Of a stretch of DNA of 39,083 nt, positions 3,114 through 24,508 are shown in pieces. The translations under genes and the position numbers were made by a program. Position 1 is the first letter of the stretch, and each line of letters opens with the position of its first letter. Source of the DNA: a virus. The stretch covers positions 1 through 39,083 of IMG/VR virus record IMGVR_UViG_3300003319_000229. One strand, given 5' to 3'. The notes under the pieces were generated by a model, which was given only the letters and a program-made list of their open reading frames with translations, did no database searches and was not told where the DNA came from.

Positions 3114-3365
3114 CTAATTTTTTATTTCACCGGTATCTTCATCATGTGTAATTTTTTTACTTTCTCGTTGATCGCTTAAAAATGAAATATTTGGCATACT
3201 GTCTCGCATTTGGTGATATTTCATATCAAGCTGAACAGTTTGCATAAATTTCCCCACTAAATTTGATACGGCATTGGCTTGATTAGGAGCAACACTGCCG
3301 TCTATTACTTTTTCTAAAACTCCACTTAATAAGTTCCTAAGCTCATCAGTATTTCTAATCGCCAT
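3114..3365 (-). CDS. hypothetical protein (83 aa)
   Basis: Co-oriented ORF overlapping the upstream gene by 11 nt. Confidence 0.5.
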   Translation of the reverse strand: MAIRNTDELRNLLSGVLEKVIDGSVAPNQANAVSNLVGKFMQTVQLDMKYHQMRDSMPNISFLSDQRESKKITHDEDTGEIKN

Positions 3366-4071
3366 GCCTCACCTTCCTTTGTTTTCTAAGTTCTCGATTA
3401 AGTTTAATTTGTATTTTTCTCAGCTCAATTATTTCTTGAGGTATTTGTATTCCTTTCATATAAAAACGTGTTTGATTATTTTTTCCTCCTCTTTGATACA
3501 CTCTTATTTGCGATCGCACATAAGCATCAGAAAGAGAGTCTCTAGCTTTTTGAGCGCTCTTTCTCTGCTGCTCAAGCATTTTTTTATTCAATAATGGATT
3601 ATTTTTTTTATTTTTATATATTGCTTTGTCTGTTGGTTTTCTCTTTGGTTTGTAATTTAAAGCATATTGCTTTAATTTCTCAGGATTTCTTTTTCTCCAT
3701 TCTCTGCATTTTTTTATATATTCTATTTTATTTTTATTTACACTATTTTTTTTATTCTCGTTGTCACAAATTTTGCAAATAAGAGTTCCTCTTGTATCTA
3801 TTCTGATTCTATCTAGTGGGATATCCCCATGCTTTTTGCAATTTTTTTTAACATTTCCATTTTCTAATTCTTTCAGTGCTGAATATTTTCTTTCTGAGCC
3901 CCATTTTTTATATTTTTCAGGATTTCTTTTTTGCCAATCCTTTTTATATCCTTTTCTGCAAATCGAGCAAGCACGGGCGGTATTTCCTGATTTGGAATTA
4001 ATTAAATACGTGTTCTCTACTGTTAGTCCCCCATGTTTTTTGCAAATCTTAATTATATCATCCGCTGACAT
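3355..4071 (-). CDS. Lys/Cys-rich protein with internally duplicated putative zinc-binding module
   Basis: Two modules align with each other: ICKKHGGLTVEN...ACSICRKGYKKDWQKRNPEKYKKW and NCKKHGDIPLDR...LICKICDNENKK...CREWRKRNPEKLKQY. The C-terminal half is very basic. Confidence 0.6.
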   Translation of the reverse strand: MSADDIIKICKKHGGLTVENTYLINSKSGNTARACSICRKGYKKDWQKRNPEKYKKWGSERKYSALKELENGNVKKNCKKHGDIPLDRIRIDTRGTLICKICDNENKKNSVNKNKIEYIKKCREWRKRNPEKLKQYALNYKPKRKPTDKAIYKNKKNNPLLNKKMLEQQRKSAQKARDSLSDAYVRSQIRVYQRGGKNNQTRFYMKGIQIPQEIIELRKIQIKLNRELRKQRKVRHGD

Positions 4072-7851: not shown

Positions 7852-7939
7852 TAAATGCTACAGAGACATTCGAAAGAGTGTCTCTTATGGATTTATTAAT
7901 CAGACCAATAGGGTCTTACTTAAACTAAAGAGGTGTTAT

Positions 7940-8800
7940 ATGTCGTTACGTGCAAAAAAACCAGAAGCAATACAGAAAAGATTAAAAGCTTTTTTCTACG
8001 GAGGCGCGAAGGTTGGAAAAACTACTGCATCTATTCAGTTTCCCAAACCATATCTTATTGATACTGAACGCGGCGCTGAAAATGATAAATATGTAAAACT
8101 ATTAGAGCAAAGTGGTGGCGTAATATTTCAGACAAATGATTTTGATGACGTGTTAAAAGAAGTAACTTCCCTCTTAACTGAAAAACATGAATATAAAACT
8201 CTTATTATCGATCCTATGACCGTTTTATATGACAATCTTTTAGAAAAATGGTCAATCAAGGTTGGAACTGATTATGGTAGACACGCTAATTATGCTGCTA
8301 AGCAAATGAAAAATCTTTACAGTCTTTTATTACGTTTGGATATGAATGTCATTATTACTAGTCATGCTAAAGCACAGTATCAAATGATTGGCAAAGAATT
8401 AACATTACTCGGCAATACTTTTGATTGTTATAAAAAAATGGACTATATGTTTGATCTTATTCTTGAAATACAAAAGAGGGGATCAAGTAGAATTGCAATG
8501 ATCAAAGGTACTAGACTTACTGGTTTTAAAGAAGATGAAACATTTGATTTTAGCTATGAAGAAATAAGCAAAAGATATGGTGTTGAATTATTAGAAAAAG
8601 ATTGCATTTCTCAAACACTGGCTAGCGAAAATCAAATAAAAGAGATGAAACATTTAGTTTCATTATTGCATATACCACCCGAAACTATTGATAAAATGTT
8701 ACAGAAGGAAGAAGCTGAAGACTGGACATATTTATCTAGTGCGTATATTCAAAAATGCATTGATCATTTTAAATCTAAAATTCAAGGAGAAGCAGCATGA
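7940..8800 (+). CDS. AAA_24 / Sak4-like RecA-fold ATPase
   Basis: Walker A FYGGAKVGKTT and Walker B-like TLIIDPMT are present. ATG at 7940 follows AAAGAGG. The track start at 7805 lies inside the preceding gene. Confidence 0.75.
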   Translation: MSLRAKKPEAIQKRLKAFFYGGAKVGKTTASIQFPKPYLIDTERGAENDKYVKLLEQSGGVIFQTNDFDDVLKEVTSLLTEKHEYKTLIIDPMTVLYDNLLEKWSIKVGTDYGRHANYAAKQMKNLYSLLLRLDMNVIITSHAKAQYQMIGKELTLLGNTFDCYKKMDYMFDLILEIQKRGSSRIAMIKGTRLTGFKEDETFDFSYEEISKRYGVELLEKDCISQTLASENQIKEMKHLVSLLHIPPETIDKMLQKEEAEDWTYLSSAYIQKCIDHFKSKIQGEAA

Positions 8801-9618: not shown

Positions 9619-9834
9619 TTAGTTATTTTTTTTATATAGACCCATATGAATTGTTTCTAAATAAAGTGTCATAAATATTCTTTCTTCTAGCTCTTGTCGT
9701 GCTTTTCTCAGCTCTGGGAAATATTTATCCATTATTCTCACAATATCTTCACAACATAACTCAAGGCGGTATTGATCTTTTTCGCTTAATTCGTCTATTT
9801 TGGGAAACTCTCTCATCAATGAGCTTTCTGTCAT
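9619..9834 (-). CDS. hypothetical protein (71 aa)
   Basis: ATG at 9834 is preceded by AAGGAGAT. The track start at 9888 overlaps the upstream gene. Confidence 0.5.
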   Translation of the reverse strand: MTESSLMREFPKIDELSEKDQYRLELCCEDIVRIMDKYFPELRKARQELEERIFMTLYLETIHMGLYKKNN

Positions 9835-9835
9835 G

Positions 9836-10261
9836 CTATCTCCTTTGTTGTTTTTTAAATGTTTGACTTTCAAAATCGCTGCTCTCATGAATAGCTTTTT
9901 GTTTTTTATTAGCAGGAAACTTCAATGAAATAATATTTTTCTTTTCTTCTTTAAGAAAAGTCTCTGCCTTGATAGGTATTATGGTTGAATTTGAATTTGT
10001 TACCCTTGGAAGTTTTTCATTTATTAATCGATAATGATTTTTAAATGTTTCATTTTCATTAATGACTTTGTTGTGTCGAGCAACTCTTTTGTTGTATTTT
10101 CTGATTTCATTTTTAAGCATTAAACAGGCTGATACGAATAGTAAGCTTGCTCCAGAAATAAGAAGGTAAAAAGCAAATTGTTCTTCAATAATCATTGGTT
10201 TCTCATATAAAGAGGAAGTCGGCCGGAATTGCACCGGCTTAGTCTCTTTAGTTTCAATCAT
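9836..10261 (-). CDS. single-pass membrane protein (141 aa)
   Basis: ATG at 10261 is preceded by GAGGGTGA. The hydrophobic segment is FAFYLLISGASLLFVSACLML. The 48 extra N-terminal codons in the track run through the GC-rich RNA-like island and are probably not coding. Confidence 0.55.
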   Translation of the reverse strand: MIETKETKPVQFRPTSSLYEKPMIIEEQFAFYLLISGASLLFVSACLMLKNEIRKYNKRVARHNKVINENETFKNHYRLINEKLPRVTNSNSTIIPIKAETFLKEEKKNIISLKFPANKKQKAIHESSDFESQTFKKQQRR

Positions 10262-10370
10262 TTCACCCTCGATTGTAGGGATGCCTAAACGTTCCCGCGA
10301 TGAGACCCCGCAGGCTAGATCGCACGTCACTGTCCGTGCCGCGACTTCCATAAAGCCTCTGTCAAAGTGT

Positions 10371-10473
10371 GGAAATCGGAAGGAATTGAACCTTCTTATG
10401 AGCACCCTACTAGCCGACGCTCATGATCTGCTAGTCGCTTTAGGGTCGCGTTTCCAAAACGCCAACGACTTCC
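10371..10473 (-). ncRNA. tRNA-like structured RNA with non-canonical, extended anticodon region
   Basis: Read on the minus strand: an 8-bp acceptor GGAAGTCG/CGATTTCC (one G.U); a D-arm GCGT-TTTGGAA-ACGC containing GG; ACCCTA...TAGGGT enclosing about 31 nt; a canonical T-arm GAAGG-TTCAATT-CCTTC. No standard anticodon arm and no encoded CCA. Confidence 0.35.
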
Positions 10474-10541
10474 ATAAGATTGCATCATACAGTAAACTTT
10501 AGGTGTTTCAAAATTATAGGACATAATTTGAAGGATAACTC

Positions 10542-10823
10542 ATGGATATTCGTTATGTTACAGATGCTGAAAAAAGAGGCTACATAGATCGTGTAAATCA
10601 AAGTTTCGAAGATATCAAGAAAACCATTATTACACTTTCGCATGATATGGAAAGTGATGATCTAAAGACACAAGCAACAGCGGTATGGATAGGTGGCCAA
10701 CTTTGTAGTTGGTATTCTGATTTTATCAAAGAAATCAGAAAACTCGATCAACTCGAAAAAACACGGAAGGATTTGGAATCTGAAATCAAAGGAGCTGTAG
10801 AACATGACACAACCATCAACTGA
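10542..10823 (+). CDS. hypothetical protein (93 aa)
   Basis: ORF with AAGGA upstream. Confidence 0.55.
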   Translation: MDIRYVTDAEKRGYIDRVNQSFEDIKKTIITLSHDMESDDLKTQATAVWIGGQLCSWYSDFIKEIRKLDQLEKTRKDLESEIKGAVEHDTTIN

Positions 10824-11100
10824 TTTAAAGACGATATCTGGCGAAATTGAGCATCCATTAGGTAAATTCTGGATTAATGAAAAAGCGTTTGTTTTTAATC
10901 CTGATATGCAGCCTCTCATTGTTGATTTTCATATTAAAGCAATTCAGGAGCAAAATGGTTCCATCTTCTATACTCAGGACAAACAAAAATGGGTAAGAGA
11001 AGATTTCGTTTATAAGAACCGCTATTCGGCTTATCGCGCATTGATTAAACAAGCTGAAAGTGAGATAATTGAGCCAATTAACACTACTCCCGTAGAGTAG
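10804..11100 (+). CDS. hypothetical protein (98 aa)
   Basis: Overlaps the upstream gene by 20 nt. Confidence 0.5.
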   Translation: MTQPSTDLKTISGEIEHPLGKFWINEKAFVFNPDMQPLIVDFHIKAIQEQNGSIFYTQDKQKWVREDFVYKNRYSAYRALIKQAESEIIEPINTTPVE

Positions 11101-17822: not shown

Positions 17823-19367
17823 ATGGAATTCGACTATGAAAAGGAACAAGAAGCTGCTCGTCTTCGCGGCAGTCTCATTGAGTTTACCCGTTACTTTTTT
17901 CAGCATATTACTGGCCGTGAGTTTCTGGTATCAGCCCCCATCGGAAGAGAGAGTCATCATGTTACAGTGTGCCGCTCGCTCACCCACGTACAACGACTTG
18001 AGCGGTTAAGGGAAATACTAAATCTTCCGCCCGGCTCAGGTAAATCTACTTTAGTCTCGATGTTTATTGCATGGTGCTGGGCAAGCTTTCCTGACTCCAA
18101 TTTTCTGTATATTTCTTACTCTCATGAGGTTGCAAAAAAACATACGAGTTTTGTTAAAAGTATTGTATCCTCGCGCATGTATAACTATCTGTTCGATATT
18201 TCGATTGATTCAGACAGCAGGGCAAAGGATGCCTTCAAAACTAATCATGGCGGCTTTTTAAGGGCTTTCGGAAGCTCCGGCGCGGTCACAGGCCAAGACG
18301 GCGGTTTGCCAGCGCTAGATCGATTTAGCGGCGCTGTCATTATTGATGACGCCCATAAGCCAGATGAAGTTCATTCAGATACGATTCGACAGGGAGTGAT
18401 AAAGAATTATGATGAGACGATTCGTCAGCGTGTTCGCGGCATTAATGTGCCAATTATCTGTATTGGTCATAGGCTTCATGAGTCTGACCTATTTGACTAT
18501 CTTATAAGCGGTAAAGACACCGATACATGGCATCAAACAGTCTTGGAATCCATTGATGGGGCAGGGAATGCGTTATATCCCGAAATGATGCCGCTTGAAA
18601 AACTTTTAGCGCTTCGTGAAAAATCCCCATATGTCTATTGGAGCCAGTATCAACAAAAGCCTGTTCCTTCAGGCAATGCTTTATTTAAGCCAGAATGGTT
18701 TGTTGAGCTTGATCAAGAACCCCAATTTCTCTCAACCTTCATTACAGCAGATACCGCCGAAACAGATAAATCATGGAATGATGCGACTGTATTTAGCTTT
18801 TGGGGCGTATATGAAATTGAAAACTACGGCAAGAAAACAGGTAAACTCGGGCTTCACTGGCTAGATTGCGTTGAAATGCGAATAGAGCCTAAAGACCTAG
18901 AATCAGCCTTCATTGATTTTCATGCAAATTGTACACTTCATCCTGTCCAGCCTTTGATGGCCGCCATTGAAAAGAAATCAACAGGAGTAACCCTTGTCAG
19001 CGTATTAAAAAATATCAGAGGGCTTTCTGTTCGAGAGGTTGAAAGAACGCGAGATTCTGGAAGTAAAACGAAACGTTTTCTTGAAATGCAGCCTTACATT
19101 GCCGAAAAACGCATATCCTTTACGACAGGCGCTAAGCACAAAAACCTCTGTATTGATCATATGTCTAAGATTACGGCCAATGATGCCCACAGACATGACG
19201 ATATAGCAGATACCCTTAGTGATTCGATACGTATCGCGCTTATTGAAAAAACGATATACAATATTGACACGAGACAGGAGTCTCAGAAACGGATTTACAT
19301 AGGCTTGAATAATCAATTGCGCAAACGGATTCGCGCGAGCGAGGCAAGGAATGCCCGAATTAGCTAA
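17823..19367 (+). CDS. terL: terminase large subunit
   Basis: Walker A LPPGSGKST and Walker B AVIIDDAHKPDE are present. The C-terminal nuclease-type acidic residues include ITADTAETDK and HDDIADTLSD. Confidence 0.85.
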   Translation: MEFDYEKEQEAARLRGSLIEFTRYFFQHITGREFLVSAPIGRESHHVTVCRSLTHVQRLERLREILNLPPGSGKSTLVSMFIAWCWASFPDSNFLYISYSHEVAKKHTSFVKSIVSSRMYNYLFDISIDSDSRAKDAFKTNHGGFLRAFGSSGAVTGQDGGLPALDRFSGAVIIDDAHKPDEVHSDTIRQGVIKNYDETIRQRVRGINVPIICIGHRLHESDLFDYLISGKDTDTWHQTVLESIDGAGNALYPEMMPLEKLLALREKSPYVYWSQYQQKPVPSGNALFKPEWFVELDQEPQFLSTFITADTAETDKSWNDATVFSFWGVYEIENYGKKTGKLGLHWLDCVEMRIEPKDLESAFIDFHANCTLHPVQPLMAAIEKKSTGVTLVSVLKNIRGLSVREVERTRDSGSKTKRFLEMQPYIAEKRISFTTGAKHKNLCIDHMSKITANDAHRHDDIADTLSDSIRIALIEKTIYNIDTRQESQKRIYIGLNNQLRKRIRASEARNARIS

Positions 19368-21474
19368 GATTCATGCTGATCGTTTAGTCGATCTTAAGCA
19401 GAAAGTTGAAGAAGCACAGAAAGCAAACAGAGCAAACGTCGATCGTTTTGAAAAGTTTGTTAAGTTTGTCTTTAAAACCTCTCTTACGGATGATCAAGCA
19501 GGCACACTGGCCGACAACGGTTATCCCACTCTCGAATTCAACATCCTAGAATCATTCGTATCAAGAAAACGCGGTGAGTTTGCTAAGCAGCAACCAAGCT
19601 TAACCGTTCGTGCAGCCGATGGCATTCCGCTCAATCTCTTAAATGATGAATTCATTGCGACACTGAATGTTGTTGAAGCGCACTTGCGAGCCATCTTCTT
19701 CGATGGCGCAAATGACATGCTTGATTATAACGTATTTTCTGATTTGCTGGCAGGCGGATTTTCAGTTCTTCGCGTATATACCGACTACGTTAACGAAATG
19801 AGCTTTGAACAGAATATCTGTGTTGAGCGAGTGTTTGATCCAACGCTTACTGTATTTGATCCATTAGCAAGAAAATCTCATAAAGGTGATGGACGCTTTT
19901 GCGCTGAAATTTATCCCATGACACAGAAACAATTCGAGGATGAATTTGGCGAAGAAGTTGCGCAGGAAATGAAATATACGCGTAATTTATCAGGCTTTGA
20001 CTGGTCATTTGAAAATGAAAGAGAAAAAATAGTTTTAGTATGTGATTTTTACGAGAAAAAAACAAAGCCCGCAACGATTTATAAGTTATCTAATGGCCAT
20101 AGCATTACAAAAGAAGAATATGACAAATTTAAAGAACAATGGGATGCATCAGGCTATGTTGAACAAATGCCAATTCCCATTCATAAACGTAAAACAATTA
20201 TCGAATATATTTGCCGATATCGATTTTGTGAATCGCGGGTATTGGAATATAAAGAAACTGATTTTAAATATTTACCCCTTGTCTTTATCGATGGCAATAG
20301 CGTTGTTATAAAAGATGGGAGCAACTATACACAGATGACGCGTCCTTATGTTTATCATGCAGAAGGTATTCAGCGATTAAAGAATTTTGCAGGACAGTCG
20401 CTTGGCAATGAACTGGAAAATACGATTCAGCATAAATTTATTGTGGCCATTGAGTCCATTCCGGAAGATTATCAAGACGCATATCAGAATGTACAGAAAG
20501 CCGATACGCTGGTATACAATCATTTTTTAGATACCAATAATCCCAATGTCACGTTGCCCGCACCGCGTGAAGTTGCGAGAACCCCTATTCCCCCTGAGAT
20601 CACTAATACATTTAAAATGTCTGATGAGATGACGCAGACTATTTTAGGATCGTACGATCCTTCGATGGGAATGAATAATGCTGCGATGTCCGGTATCGCA
20701 TTTGCGAGAAGCGCAATTCAGGGAGATGGCGCATCTGTTCCCTATATTGTTGGATACATTAAAGGATTAAATCGTGTGGCACAGATAATTGTTGATCTTA
20801 TTCCAAAATATTATAGAACTCCTCGAAGCCTTCCTATTCTAAAACCAAATGGCGAGAGATCATTTGTTGAGATCAATAAACGCGGATCGCTTTACATGAA
20901 TTACGATCCGAACTCCTTGCAAGTGAAGGTCGAAACAGGCGTTAACTTTGCGATGCAAAAAGAAATGGCATTACAGACTGTGATACAGCTTTCACAAGCT
21001 AACAAAGGATTTGCAGAATTCTTTAATGAAGAAGGATTGCCTACATTGCTTGATAATATCGAAATGCGCGGTATTGATGAGCTCAAAGAAAAAGCCAATA
21101 AGTGGATGGCTCAACAAAAACAAATGAAAGCAATGGCGATGCAGCAACAACAAGGCCAAATGCAAATGGAAGCTAAAAAGCAAGCCATGGAAATGATGGC
21201 AATGCAAAAAGAGATTCAATCTCCAACAGAAGCTCAAGTGGGTCTGATGATGATCCAAGAAAAAGCACAAAACGATGCTGCAAACTTGGAATTAAAAGAA
21301 CGCGATTCACAAACTAAATTCTTAGAGACAATCAGTAAGATCAGAAATGCAGACGTACAAAACGAATTAAAAGCAGCTGAACTTGATGCAGAGAATACCC
21401 GAAGTGCGGTTGAGGCTGCAATCAAGGTCAGTAGTCATATTCAAGAACAATTGAGGCCACAAACGCATGTTTAA
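19351..21474 (+). CDS. portal protein
   Basis: A 707-aa protein overlapping the terL stop. It has a Gln/Met-rich helical C-terminal tail (MAQQKQMKAMAMQQQQGQMQMEAKKQAMEMMAMQKE), as in long-barrel portals. Confidence 0.75.
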   Translation: MPELAKIHADRLVDLKQKVEEAQKANRANVDRFEKFVKFVFKTSLTDDQAGTLADNGYPTLEFNILESFVSRKRGEFAKQQPSLTVRAADGIPLNLLNDEFIATLNVVEAHLRAIFFDGANDMLDYNVFSDLLAGGFSVLRVYTDYVNEMSFEQNICVERVFDPTLTVFDPLARKSHKGDGRFCAEIYPMTQKQFEDEFGEEVAQEMKYTRNLSGFDWSFENEREKIVLVCDFYEKKTKPATIYKLSNGHSITKEEYDKFKEQWDASGYVEQMPIPIHKRKTIIEYICRYRFCESRVLEYKETDFKYLPLVFIDGNSVVIKDGSNYTQMTRPYVYHAEGIQRLKNFAGQSLGNELENTIQHKFIVAIESIPEDYQDAYQNVQKADTLVYNHFLDTNNPNVTLPAPREVARTPIPPEITNTFKMSDEMTQTILGSYDPSMGMNNAAMSGIAFARSAIQGDGASVPYIVGYIKGLNRVAQIIVDLIPKYYRTPRSLPILKPNGERSFVEINKRGSLYMNYDPNSLQVKVETGVNFAMQKEMALQTVIQLSQANKGFAEFFNEEGLPTLLDNIEMRGIDELKEKANKWMAQQKQMKAMAMQQQQGQMQMEAKKQAMEMMAMQKEIQSPTEAQVGLMMIQEKAQNDAANLELKERDSQTKFLETISKIRNADVQNELKAAELDAENTRSAVEAAIKVSSHIQEQLRPQTHV

Positions 21475-22960: not shown

Positions 22961-23011
22961 AACTCATAACCGTTGCAATTTGATTCTCCACATGGACAGG
23001 GAGCATTTGCA

Positions 23012-23442
23012 ATGCCAGTCAATATTTTGCAACAGGTTCAGACGTATAACGACTCGAACCTTGCCTTACTACTTAACTCATTTGCTTTTATTAGCACTAG
23101 TAACAAAAAGTTCGAACGGTTCAATGATAGTGTTCCGAAAAATTTGGGCGACACGGTTACGTTTGATCTACCTCCGCGATTCACCACTACGAATAGCTTG
23201 ATTGCAAGCTTTCAGGGTGCAGAACAGCGCGTACAACCATTAAAAGTTGATAAGCAGGCATCAACTTCTTACGAATTTACAGCGCAACAATTTATTTTTA
23301 ATGTTCGCGATTACATGGAAAAATTCGGTAAATCAGCGATTGCGGAACTTGGCACACAAGTAGAAGCAGATGTCGCAGAACTTGCCGAAACGAATACTTT
23401 CCGTTTTTATGGGGATGGTGTAACACCGATTTCGACATACCT
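23012..23442 (+). CDS. major capsid protein, exon 1
   Basis: ATG at 23012 follows GGGAG. It reads MPVNILQQVQTYND...FRFYGDGVTPISTY and ends at a U that can pair with G of an internal guide. The track ORF runs on to a TAG inside the intron. Confidence 0.65.
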
Positions 23443-23694
23443 TAAGTTTAGGGTCGCTGCCTAGTAATAGGCAGATGTAACTGGGTGAACTCAGGGGAAA
23501 TCTCAAGTAGATAATCCTGATCCAAGCCTCAAAAGATCGAGGAAGGAGCAACGACTAGGTCGAAAGACCGTACTCTCAAGTGAGAGGAAGCGCCCAGCTC
23601 CACGAAAGTGGATGAAGATATAGTCTAATCTACCGAGAGATCGGTAGCAGCCGAAAGGCGAAGCAAGATTAACGACCTTGTTTGAATATGAATG
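23443..23694 (+). ncRNA. group I self-splicing intron, ORF-less (IA-like architecture)
   Basis: A P1 with a U.G wobble, R-like gcaacgactagg and S-like gaagatatagtc (P7), a ctggg/cccag P3 and several GNRA-capped hairpins are present. The terminal base is G at 23694. Length is 252 nt (a multiple of 3), and removal restores one ORF. Confidence 0.75.
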
Positions 23695-24508
23695 ACAACT
23701 CGCAAATGCATTAGCCTTCTTTAGAAACTTTGGGGCTGCTAAAGATAATACTAAAGGCTATTTGTCTGACTTGACTTTCCCTGCTGTCGTAAACAGTGGA
23801 TTAAATCAATTCACTTTGAATCGCGGCAATCGCGAAGCAAATAGCTGGGAAATTGGTGCATTCTCTAATTGTGAATGGTATCAATCAAATCTTTTGAAAA
23901 CCCATGTAGCGGGAACTGAGGGTAACGCAGGTGCTGCTTTAACTGTCGTAAGCGTTGTAACCAATGCAGATGGCGGCGTGATACAAATTACTTTTAGTGG
24001 TACAACTGCTGCAAGTGATCCTGATTCCATTAAAGCCTATGACAAGTTCATGTTTAGTGATGGCATTTCTGGAAAGCCAAATCTTCGCTTCTTAACATTC
24101 ATCGGACACAAACCAAGTCAAAGCCCTGTGCAATTCAGAGCAACTGCTGATGCTGCATCTACCGCTGGCTCTCAGGTAACAGTTGATATTTATCCACCCT
24201 TACAAGCGACAGCTGGAAAGAACCAAAACATCAACAATGCGATTGTTGCAGGCATGCAAGTAACCGTACTGCCTGATCATCGATGCGGTTTGATTATGTC
24301 TGGTAATCCGTTGTTTTTAGCTATGCCAAAGCTTCCGGAAGAAGTTCCCTATCCAACATCTGATTCGATGGATCCAAATAGTGGTGCTTCTATTCGTATG
24401 TACTACGGCTCGCTCTTTGGACAGAATCAACGTGGAACCATTCATGATGTCATCTGGGGTAAAACGTTGGTTGATGAATATGCAATGATGGTCGCATTGC
24501 CAGTTTAA
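23695..24508 (+). CDS. major capsid protein, exon 2
   Basis: The frame is open from 23696 (QLANALAFFRNFGAAKDNTKGYLSDL...), well upstream of the TTG at 23762 used by the track. It is in the same frame as exon 1. The spliced product would be 414 aa. Confidence 0.65.

Follow-up and report, generated by a model that had tools for sequence, protein, structure and literature searches.

Tandem tRNA-shaped RNA modules predicted in the early leftward leader of an uncultivated phage, and their relatives in other phages

The intergenic region and its two RNA modules

The sequence analysed here is IMG/VR virus record IMGVR_UViG_3300003319_000229, a stretch of 39,083 nucleotides (nt) that is the whole metagenomic contig of a novel phage and is referred to below as the window. 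Between a promoter-like site and the first leftward gene, which codes for a single-pass membrane protein, it carries on the minus strand two tandem RNA modules, W1 and W2. They are predicted to have the shape of a transfer RNA (tRNA) with a large central domain in place of the anticodon arm, and on the sequence evidence presented below they belong to a widespread RNA family of uncultivated phages.

An earlier note on this DNA had described a GC-rich island containing one tRNA-like cloverleaf. The island is genuine: positions 10201–10475 have a GC content of 51–54%, against 36.8% for the window, and some late coding regions of the window reach a similar level. The cloverleaf, here named W1 (10473..10371, minus strand, 103 nt), also contains every element originally listed. 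Its acceptor is formed by GGAAGUCG (10473..10466) and CGAUUUCC (10378..10371), with one G.U among the pairs. Between these strands lie a D arm, GCGUUU-UGG-AAACGC (10462..10448), a central domain (10447..10396) and a T arm, GAAGG-UUCAAUU-CCUUC (10395..10379). A helix of 5–6 base pairs (bp), (A)CCCUA/UAGGG(U), loops out about 31 nt, and the linker UGCUCAUAA contains the heptamer CUCAUAA. Minimum-energy folding without constraints returns precisely this frame (-34.2 kcal/mol, z = -2.5), with an energy equalled by one of 200 shuffles. On reading the sequence W1 is indeed found to encode no CCA.

W1 is not, however, the only module of the region. The second and clearer module, W2 (10349..10214, minus strand, 136 nt), had been missed, and is a canonical member of the family. 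Its acceptor 5' strand GGAAGUCG (10349..10342) is followed by a CG linker (10341..10340), the D arm GCACG-GACAGUGA-CGUGC (10339..10322), a central domain of 82 nt and a terminal A (10321..10239), the T arm GCCGG-UGCAAUU-CCGGC (10238..10222) and the acceptor 3' strand CGACUUCC (10221..10214). Folded without constraints, W2 likewise adopts the cloverleaf frame as its minimum-energy structure.

The modules are separated by a 21-nt spacer, ACACUUUGACAGAGGCUUUAU (10350..10370, minus strand), which ends in UUAU; the same four bases stand directly 5' of G1 in both W1 and W2. A repeat search shows that the two share a 5' block, UUAUGGAAGUCG, identical at 12 of 12 nt (on the plus strand, the direct repeat CGACTTCCATAA at 10342 and 10466), and a 28-nt 3' block, 79% identical, that spans the T arm and the 3' strand of the acceptor; the repeated blocks recur about 125–157 nt further left. 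Both strands of the window and of the first 25 loci, about 250 kb, were also scanned for a structure with an acceptor of 8 bp, a T stem of 5 bp carrying the loop TNCNANN, and a D hairpin; it matched only at W1 and W2, apart from one further match that has no D arm. The acceptor 5' strands being identical, that of W1 could also form eight Watson-Crick pairs out of eight with the W2 3' strand, giving an alternative 260-nt fold (10214–10473, minus strand) that encloses both modules.

A family of tRNA-shaped RNAs in uncultivated phages

Relatives were found by pattern searches rather than by overall similarity. Comparison of window positions 9800–10900 with cultured phages by blastn gave no match, and exact or loosely degenerate patterns for the W1 T arm and acceptor returned from viral contigs either nothing or one chance match in coding sequence. 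The first true relatives, L035/L055 and L045 (locus designations are our own), were obtained from soil-type metagenome contigs with a pattern for the T arm and acceptor 3' strand that W1 and W2 share. Apart from these, most matches of an acceptor-specific pattern in metagenome and genome contigs were chance or coding, and a single genome scan with it gave no host tRNA progenitor of W1 or W2. No modules are present in loci L001–L023, which are relatives by their replication protein.

The size of the family became apparent with two short patterns. The 18-mer of the D arm, GCGTGGACAGTGACACGC, has 95 exact matches in viral-contig stretches (about two would be expected by chance), and the 17-mer of the T arm, GCCGGTKCAATTCCGGC, occurs in at least 120 such stretches, where canonical tRNAs and modules are mixed. 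Together they yield more than 100 distinct family copies. Selection on the D arm alone gave 88 unique instances, a set that is unbiased for all other features; in 70 of them a T-like hairpin of 5-7-5 form lies no more than 330 nt away. Among the 70, the 8 nt before the CG linker pair with the 8 nt after the T arm at all eight positions in 47 and at seven in 16 (63 together); the T loop is UGCAAUU in 60, and the linker is CG in 68. Seven of the acceptor positions are paired in 91–100% of cases each, and the outermost in only 76%, so the core acceptor is of 7 bp with an optional extra pair, which is G:C in half of the members. The 8-bp acceptor of the earlier description is thus present in W1 and is not a constant of the family. 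The consensus runs as follows: an acceptor of 7–8 bp, CG, a D arm GCGUG-GACAGUGA-CACGC, the variable domain, A, a T arm GCCGG-UGCAAUU-CCGGC, and the acceptor 3' strand. Unconstrained folding recovers this frame in 24 of the 26 members examined. The family T-loop sequence also occurs in a hairpin, CUG-UGCAAUU-CAG, within a late open reading frame (ORF) of the window (24126-24138, plus strand); it matches only that part of the family models, with E about 1–2.5, and is probably a chance occurrence.

Membership of W1 and W2 was assessed with a covariance model, R2, built from 27 members, none of them from the window. R2 finds W2 at 73.8 bits (E=5.1e-18), exactly at 10349..10214, and W1 at 21.5 bits (E=6.6e-4) at 10472..10372; overall it has 90 matches of about 30–91 bits in 83 loci. 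It replaced a model, R1, from which the insert had been removed, and which could not bridge long inserts and therefore matched half-modules only: two halves for W2 (E=1.3e-6 and 3.7e-5) and the 3' half for W1 (E=0.0057). In its details W2 is a typical member. It has the CG linker, the 5-bp D stem and the 8-nt loop GAYRGUGA (as CG followed by GCACG-GACAGUGA-CGUGC), which in W1 are replaced by UUG and GCGUUU-UGG-AAACGC, with a shortened D loop. Both modules have the A, the 5-bp T stem, the loop UKCAAUU and the directly adjoining paired 3' strand, as A-GAAGG-UUCAAUU-CCUUC-CGAUUUCC in W1 and A-GCCGG-UGCAAUU-CCGGC-CGACUUCC in W2. W1 is a divergent copy with the canonical T loop UUCAAUU.

The modules are intergenic and have the same orientation as the flanking genes. 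Some follow promoters and some lie in tRNA arrays; canonical tRNA genes, called at Rfam curated thresholds, adjoin modules in 4 of 18 loci. Ahead of position 1, 25 of 63 members have a U/A-rich leader (UUAU, UAAU or UUAC), and in many members a Shine-Dalgarno (SD) sequence and start codon follow 17–39 nt after the module. Some encode an in-register CCA, as A-CCA or C-CCA, an example being L202, whose acceptor is that of W2. None of the neighbouring proteins is conserved across the family loci, so any partner is likely to be supplied by the host. ORFs that overlap modules in other phages are short, vary in frame and strand, and are not conserved.

The family is absent from Rfam 15, and the 18 module-bearing loci give only ordinary tRNAs at curated thresholds. 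The consensus has no match in the cultured phages and E. coli genomes searched and a single chance match in a plasmid collection, and no description of the family was found in the literature searched.

L055, together with the IMG/VR contigs L062–L066, represents phages related to that of the window, with a p93 homologue 52% identical and a terminase about 75% identical to those of the window. Their early regions hold three to five modules, with five in L062; some are placed divergently after promoters, and others lie between genes. Several further features were seen in these loci. In L062 a GC-rich non-coding stretch of about 300 nt (3285-3594, minus strand) lies between two modules, and L045 has similar sequence at 3304-3390. 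At the end of the L062 stretch is a pairing like that of an acceptor, GGCCGA.../...UUGGCC, and then G-CCA; the stretch has no Rfam match and may be another structured RNA. The inner part of a further L062 module (3596-3684, minus strand) has an anticodon-like hairpin, ACGGA-UUUUAAA-UCCGU, with UUA at the anticodon position. Directly upstream of a family module in L045 is a 77-nt element (3398-3474, plus strand) that scores 43.1 bits with the Rfam tRNA model, above the cut-off; ARAGORN is silent on it, and its anticodon region, too long by 3 nt, forms no normal arm. Between two early-region modules of L055 lies an ORF of 77 residues (7886-8119, minus strand) made up almost entirely of GSGDGSGY-type repeats.

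Covariation and the tRNA-like elbow

In a 27-sequence alignment, 17 of the 18 stem pairs change on both sides, with 117 compensatory cells. The covariation values were reached by none of 500 shuffles, slid-partner controls pair at 31–39%, and a second alignment gives the same picture. A lack of conservation or covariation in relatives had been named by the earlier note as the outcome that would count against its helices; the helices are conserved and covary, which is the opposite outcome. In the set chosen on the D arm, exceptions to stem pairing are mostly G.U and not A.C (10 against 2). This excess is strand-specific and indicates an RNA read from this strand.

The covariation extends to tertiary contacts. 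D-loop base 4 and T-loop base 2, the equivalents of tRNA positions 18 and 55 (G18 and U55), covary as A:G in 18 members, G:U in five and A:U in one (Fisher p=1.4e-4). Next to them, the G and C that correspond to G19 and C56 do not vary. The behaviour of these four loop positions argues for a tRNA-like elbow, and hence for an L-shaped RNA.

The suggestion that W1 is a tRNA mimic is in this sense supported: the acceptor/T-arm stack, the D arm and the D-loop/T-loop elbow expected of a tRNA are all present, as seen in the folds and in the covariation of the stems and of the 18:55 pair. It was also correct that W1 is not a normal tRNA. ARAGORN finds no tRNA genes in the window, the general Rfam tRNA model has no match there, and the selenocysteine tRNA (tRNA-Sec) model scores below its cut-off. 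There is no anticodon arm; its position is occupied by about 50 nt in W1 and about 82 nt in W2, where the 7-nt loops that can be found, CAUGAGC and GGUCUCA, do not have U33. Other identities considered for W1 fare less well. A decayed tRNA-Met had been suggested by the heptamer CUCAUAA, which is indeed present in the W1 linker and has no counterpart in relatives, the central domain being hypervariable across the family. Nor is W1 a miniature transfer-messenger RNA (tmRNA): neither ARAGORN nor Rfam calls one (the Rfam tmRNA_permuted model gives 10 bits, E=9.4), there is no tag reading frame, that is, no short ORF with a stop, and there is no G3.U70 and no CCA.

The central domain

In the first 26 members the central domain measures 49–185 nt, never less than 49, with a median of about 75 nt. 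Full-length matches of up to 307 nt imply longer inserts; the range in the family is roughly 50–250 nt. Its sequence is hypervariable, although the last base is A in 77 of 79 members, and it is often GC-enriched in AT-rich phages. Central-domain subfamilies are nevertheless kept across different acceptor stems: L142 and L202 have most of the domain in common and differ in their acceptor and T stems. The central domains of L137 and L148 contain T-loop-like stretches of their own (GGUUCAAUUCC and GGUUCGAUUCC), which hints at nested or recombined tRNA-derived pieces.

The leader and its phage context

Just upstream of W1 is a sigma-70-like promoter site (10484..10511, minus strand), with a -35 element TTGAAA (10511..10506), a 16-nt spacer and a -10 element TATGAT (10489..10484). 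It agrees with the consensus at 10 of 12 positions, and its -10 element ends about 10 nt upstream of G1 of W1, which would place the start of transcription near 10477, 3–4 nt before G1. The promoter is putative, being assigned from its match to the consensus, and the number of promoter-like sites in the region is not above shuffled expectation. The site agrees with the earlier proposal of a structured 5' leader for the leftward operon, whose probable order is promoter, W1, 21-nt spacer, W2, 18 nt, and the AUG at 10195.

The first leftward gene (9836..10195, minus strand) codes for a single-pass membrane protein of 119 residues if begun at AUG 10195 (MIIEEQ...), or of 141 residues from 10261. 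AUG 10195 lies 18 nt downstream of W2. It is the favoured start because relatives typically place the start codon 17–39 nt after the module, although its SD sequence is weak. The start had previously been put at 10261; this AUG is overlapped by W2, and the non-coding gap, formerly given as 10262-10541, becomes about 10196/10214 to 10541. An SD-like GAGGGUG and the AUG at 10261..10259 (together 10259..10272, minus strand) lie inside the W2 central domain, where CCCU-ACAAUCG-AGGG can form a local hairpin masking the GAGG of this SD. An unprocessed transcript could make the 141-residue form from AUG 10261. A homologue search with the membrane protein returned only the protein itself, and flanking-gene synteny is unusable because of this orphan status.

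The wider window has the character of a P22-like phage in its portal (19351-21474) and coat proteins, with a large terminase about 33% identical to the best cultured-phage match. Its early region codes for Sak4, SSB and a DnaD-like replication protein. The only match in the window at Rfam curated thresholds is a group I intron (23433-23647, plus strand, 72.4 bits), which splits the apparent P22-like major coat protein gene into ORFs 22973-23464 and 23762-24508; the upstream ORF matches PF11651 at positions 3-133, slightly under the Pfam cut-off.

Interpretation and alternative explanations

The fold, the family membership, the covariation of stems and elbow and the location of the modules, with a promoter-like site on one side and the first gene on the other, were established computationally. 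On this basis, we favour with moderate confidence the interpretation that W1 and W2 are tandem tRNA-shaped leader RNAs of the early-left transcript, drawn from a family that keeps the tRNA frame and replaces the anticodon region, and that they are probably processed by the host, with the variable domain as payload. The frame retained would be the 7–8 bp acceptor stacked on the 5-bp T stem, the D arm and the elbow, with a lineage-specific domain of roughly 50–250 nt exchanged for the anticodon and variable region. Host RNase P would cut the 5' side at UUAU|G of both modules, and the 3' side would be trimmed, with CCA possibly added. Stable RNAs of about 103 and 136 nt, with the variable domain as their functional payload, would be released, and the downstream mRNA would be left with a short defined leader. 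An RNase P cut with 3' trimming seems the most likely route because the only conserved parts are those read by tRNA-maturation enzymes, namely the acceptor-T helix and the elbow. The retention of the insert and its conservation within subfamilies suggest that the released RNA has a role of its own.

Several observations weigh against this interpretation. Cleavage by RNase P is suggested by analogy, from the tRNA-likeness of acceptor, T arm and elbow and from the co-location of modules with tRNA genes. W1 fits the family weakly: its D arm deviates, and blastn-short finds no relative of it. Neither W1 nor W2 encodes CCA. For the payload, the 79 members share no central-domain motif apart from the terminal A, the folding z-scores of the domain are only mildly negative (mean -0.5), and a search of the phage for sequences that the two window modules could target as antisense RNAs gave nothing beyond chance and no plausible target with at least 12 nt of complementarity. 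A strong promoter stands directly upstream in only 3 of the 79 members, and was rejected as a general feature of the family. The W2 central domain holds a strong SD and an AUG in frame with the downstream gene, and excision of W2 would destroy this frame. Finally, acceptor and T pairing served as selection criterion in the first set, leaving only the set chosen on the D arm unbiased, and the covariation statistics and counts are uncorrected for phylogeny.

A bolder form of the proposal is that the family constitutes a natural phage tRNA-scaffold system. The frame would hijack host RNase P, 3' trimming and CCA addition, and the 50–250-nt inserts would be fast-evolving effectors, several per phage and expressed from early promoters; they might for example regulate host or phage mRNAs, or act as RNA decoys against defence systems. 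We put this forward as a tentative possibility.

The main rival is that the modules act only in cis, as punctuation or stability elements. They would direct endonucleolytic processing of polycistronic early transcripts, in the manner of plant-mitochondrial t-elements or T7 RNase III sites, or form a nuclease-resistant cap at the mRNA 5' end, and any excised RNA would have no function. Such a role would suit intergenic, co-oriented modules that are often followed 17–39 nt later by an SD and start codon, the placing of W1 directly after a promoter-like site, and the restriction of conservation to the parts that a processing enzyme needs. Short intergenic distances are usual in phages, however, so that closeness to a ribosome binding site carries little weight. 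It is also hard to see on this account why compact genomes retain a central domain that in the first 26 members never falls below 49 nt and has a median of about 75 nt, why its subfamilies are kept across different acceptor stems, or why there should be tandem copies (W1 and W2; five in L062) if one cut suffices. We therefore consider a purely cis-acting role unlikely, though it deserves to be taken seriously.

A role as tRNA decoys or surrogates, in which the RNAs after CCA addition would engage machinery that binds tRNA, such as toxins or defence nucleases directed at the acceptor/T-arm/elbow, an aminoacyl-tRNA synthetase, EF-Tu or the ribosome, appears improbable. The conserved elbow would serve it, as would the in-register A-CCA or C-CCA of some members (L202 among them) and the outermost G:C pair of half the members, which resembles G-1:C73 of tRNA-His. 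Against this, W1 and W2 do not encode CCA, an anticodon arm and G3.U70 are missing, the highly variable acceptor carries no conserved identity element, and the large variable domain is left unexplained.

It is very improbable that the modules represent tRNA pseudogenes in decay, or what is left of an attachment (att) site, derived for example from selC or tRNA-Met, with no function today. Phage tRNA arrays do decay, there is weak similarity to tRNA-Sec, and W1 contains CUCAUAA; the motif is not conserved, though, and more than 100 independent copies retain the same D arm and T loop, which are not those of tRNA, with compensatory changes in the stems. No integrase match was found among 30 ORFs (10 of the early region against PHROGs, 20 against Pfam).

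Equally hard to credit is translation of the region as the N-terminus of a protein of 171–189 residues (9836..10351/10405). No stop interrupts the reading frame as far as 10405, the publicly recorded gene has 171 residues, and the gene calls of 171–189 residues are overlapped by W2. The ORF is an orphan, however, and the stretch taken up by the extension is exactly that of two modules matched by a model whose training phages are unrelated, while module-overlapping ORFs elsewhere are short, inconstant in frame and strand, and not conserved. Few stop codons are to be expected in a GC-rich insert when the genome around it is AT-rich, and the earlier view of the 189-residue extension as a by-product of GC-rich, stop-poor RNA sequence holds for this orphan ORF, whose extension lies under two covariance-model matches.

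The least probable explanation is a DNA-level element, that is, an origin, operator or recombination site of short palindromes, as might be suspected from a position about 860 bp upstream of the replication-initiator gene and from an 8-mer, GGAAGTCG, present four times in both orientations, since the strand-specific preference for G.U over A.C (10 against 2), pairing over long and variable distances that DNA-binding sites do not need, a freely varying acceptor sequence and the tertiary 18:55 covariation are those of an RNA.

If the modules are processed as proposed, phages would be producing stable non-coding RNAs, and shaping their early mRNAs, by way of the host's tRNA pathway, and the family would provide a large comparative data set for a puzzle that has stood for 50 years, that of the T4 species 1 and 2 RNAs. 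Gene callers currently annotate the family as protein-coding, as in this contig, and at the least the covariance model can correct such ORF over-calls in phage annotation.

Comparison with known RNAs

Among Rfam families the best match of W1 is tRNA-Sec (RF01852), whose model aligns end to end on 10371-10473 at 26.6 bits against a cut-off of 47 (E=0.0045 when 551 nt are scanned, and 0.32 for the window as a whole). The likeness lies in the 13-bp acceptor-plus-T helix (8/5), the 5' GGAAG and the canonical T loop of W1. The modules differ in having neither an anticodon stem-loop nor UCA, and in their optional eighth acceptor pair. The tRNA-Sec geometry that had been suspected does not extend to the D arm, which in the family has 5 bp and an 8-nt loop, compared with 6 bp and a 4-nt loop in tRNA-Sec, and such an ancestry is not upheld.

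RAGATH-21 (RF03097) has no match in the window at E<=10. The L062 module at 3684..3596 aligns weakly with it, having in common a closing helix followed by a hairpin with a UGCAAUU loop, and the sequences AAUAGAA and AGGUUGA; its 19.5 bits, against a cut-off of 70.3, make this a lead only. Two other classes were considered and set aside: the C4 antisense RNA of P1/P7, which has no Rfam match and no complementarity of at least 12 nt to a plausible target in the window, and Y-RNA-like RNAs, for which there is no Rfam support.

A closer parallel is the species 1 RNA of phage T4 (rnaC, 139 nt), a stable phage-encoded RNA that ends the T4 tRNA cluster. It has a canonical T arm, CCGGG-UUCGAAU-CCCGG, followed by a strand imperfectly paired with the 5' end, a large central domain in place of the anticodon arm, and no encoded CCA. 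It is not known to have a function. It differs in having no GACAGUGA D arm and, on our reading of its sequence, acceptor pairing at five of seven positions, and R2 has no match in the T4 tRNA region.

Plant mitochondrial t-elements and the mascRNA and menRNA of MALAT1 and NEAT1 are described as tRNA-like folds that are cut by RNase P and RNase Z to give transcript ends (PMC1920247, PMC8457004). As presented in these sources they resemble the phage modules in being tRNA-like folds within longer transcripts, and their mechanism is the one proposed here for the modules. They belong to eukaryotes or organelles, have no sequence relationship to the modules and are not known to have a hypervariable insert; their processing has been demonstrated where that of the modules is predicted.

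The design of the modules is that of the engineered tRNA scaffolds of Ponchon and Dardel, in which the acceptor, D and T arms are reportedly kept, a cargo RNA takes the place of the anticodon arm, and the cell processes and stabilises the chimera. The scaffold is an artificial construct, and for a natural family the analogy would serve as a working hypothesis.

tRNA-like RNAs are thus known from phage T4, plant mitochondria, MALAT1 and plant viruses. The family described here is distinguished from them by three features: its abundance in uncultivated phages; a D-arm/T-loop signature of its own, which includes an A:G pair in place of the G18:U55 elbow contact; and the hypervariable insert that replaces the anticodon arm.

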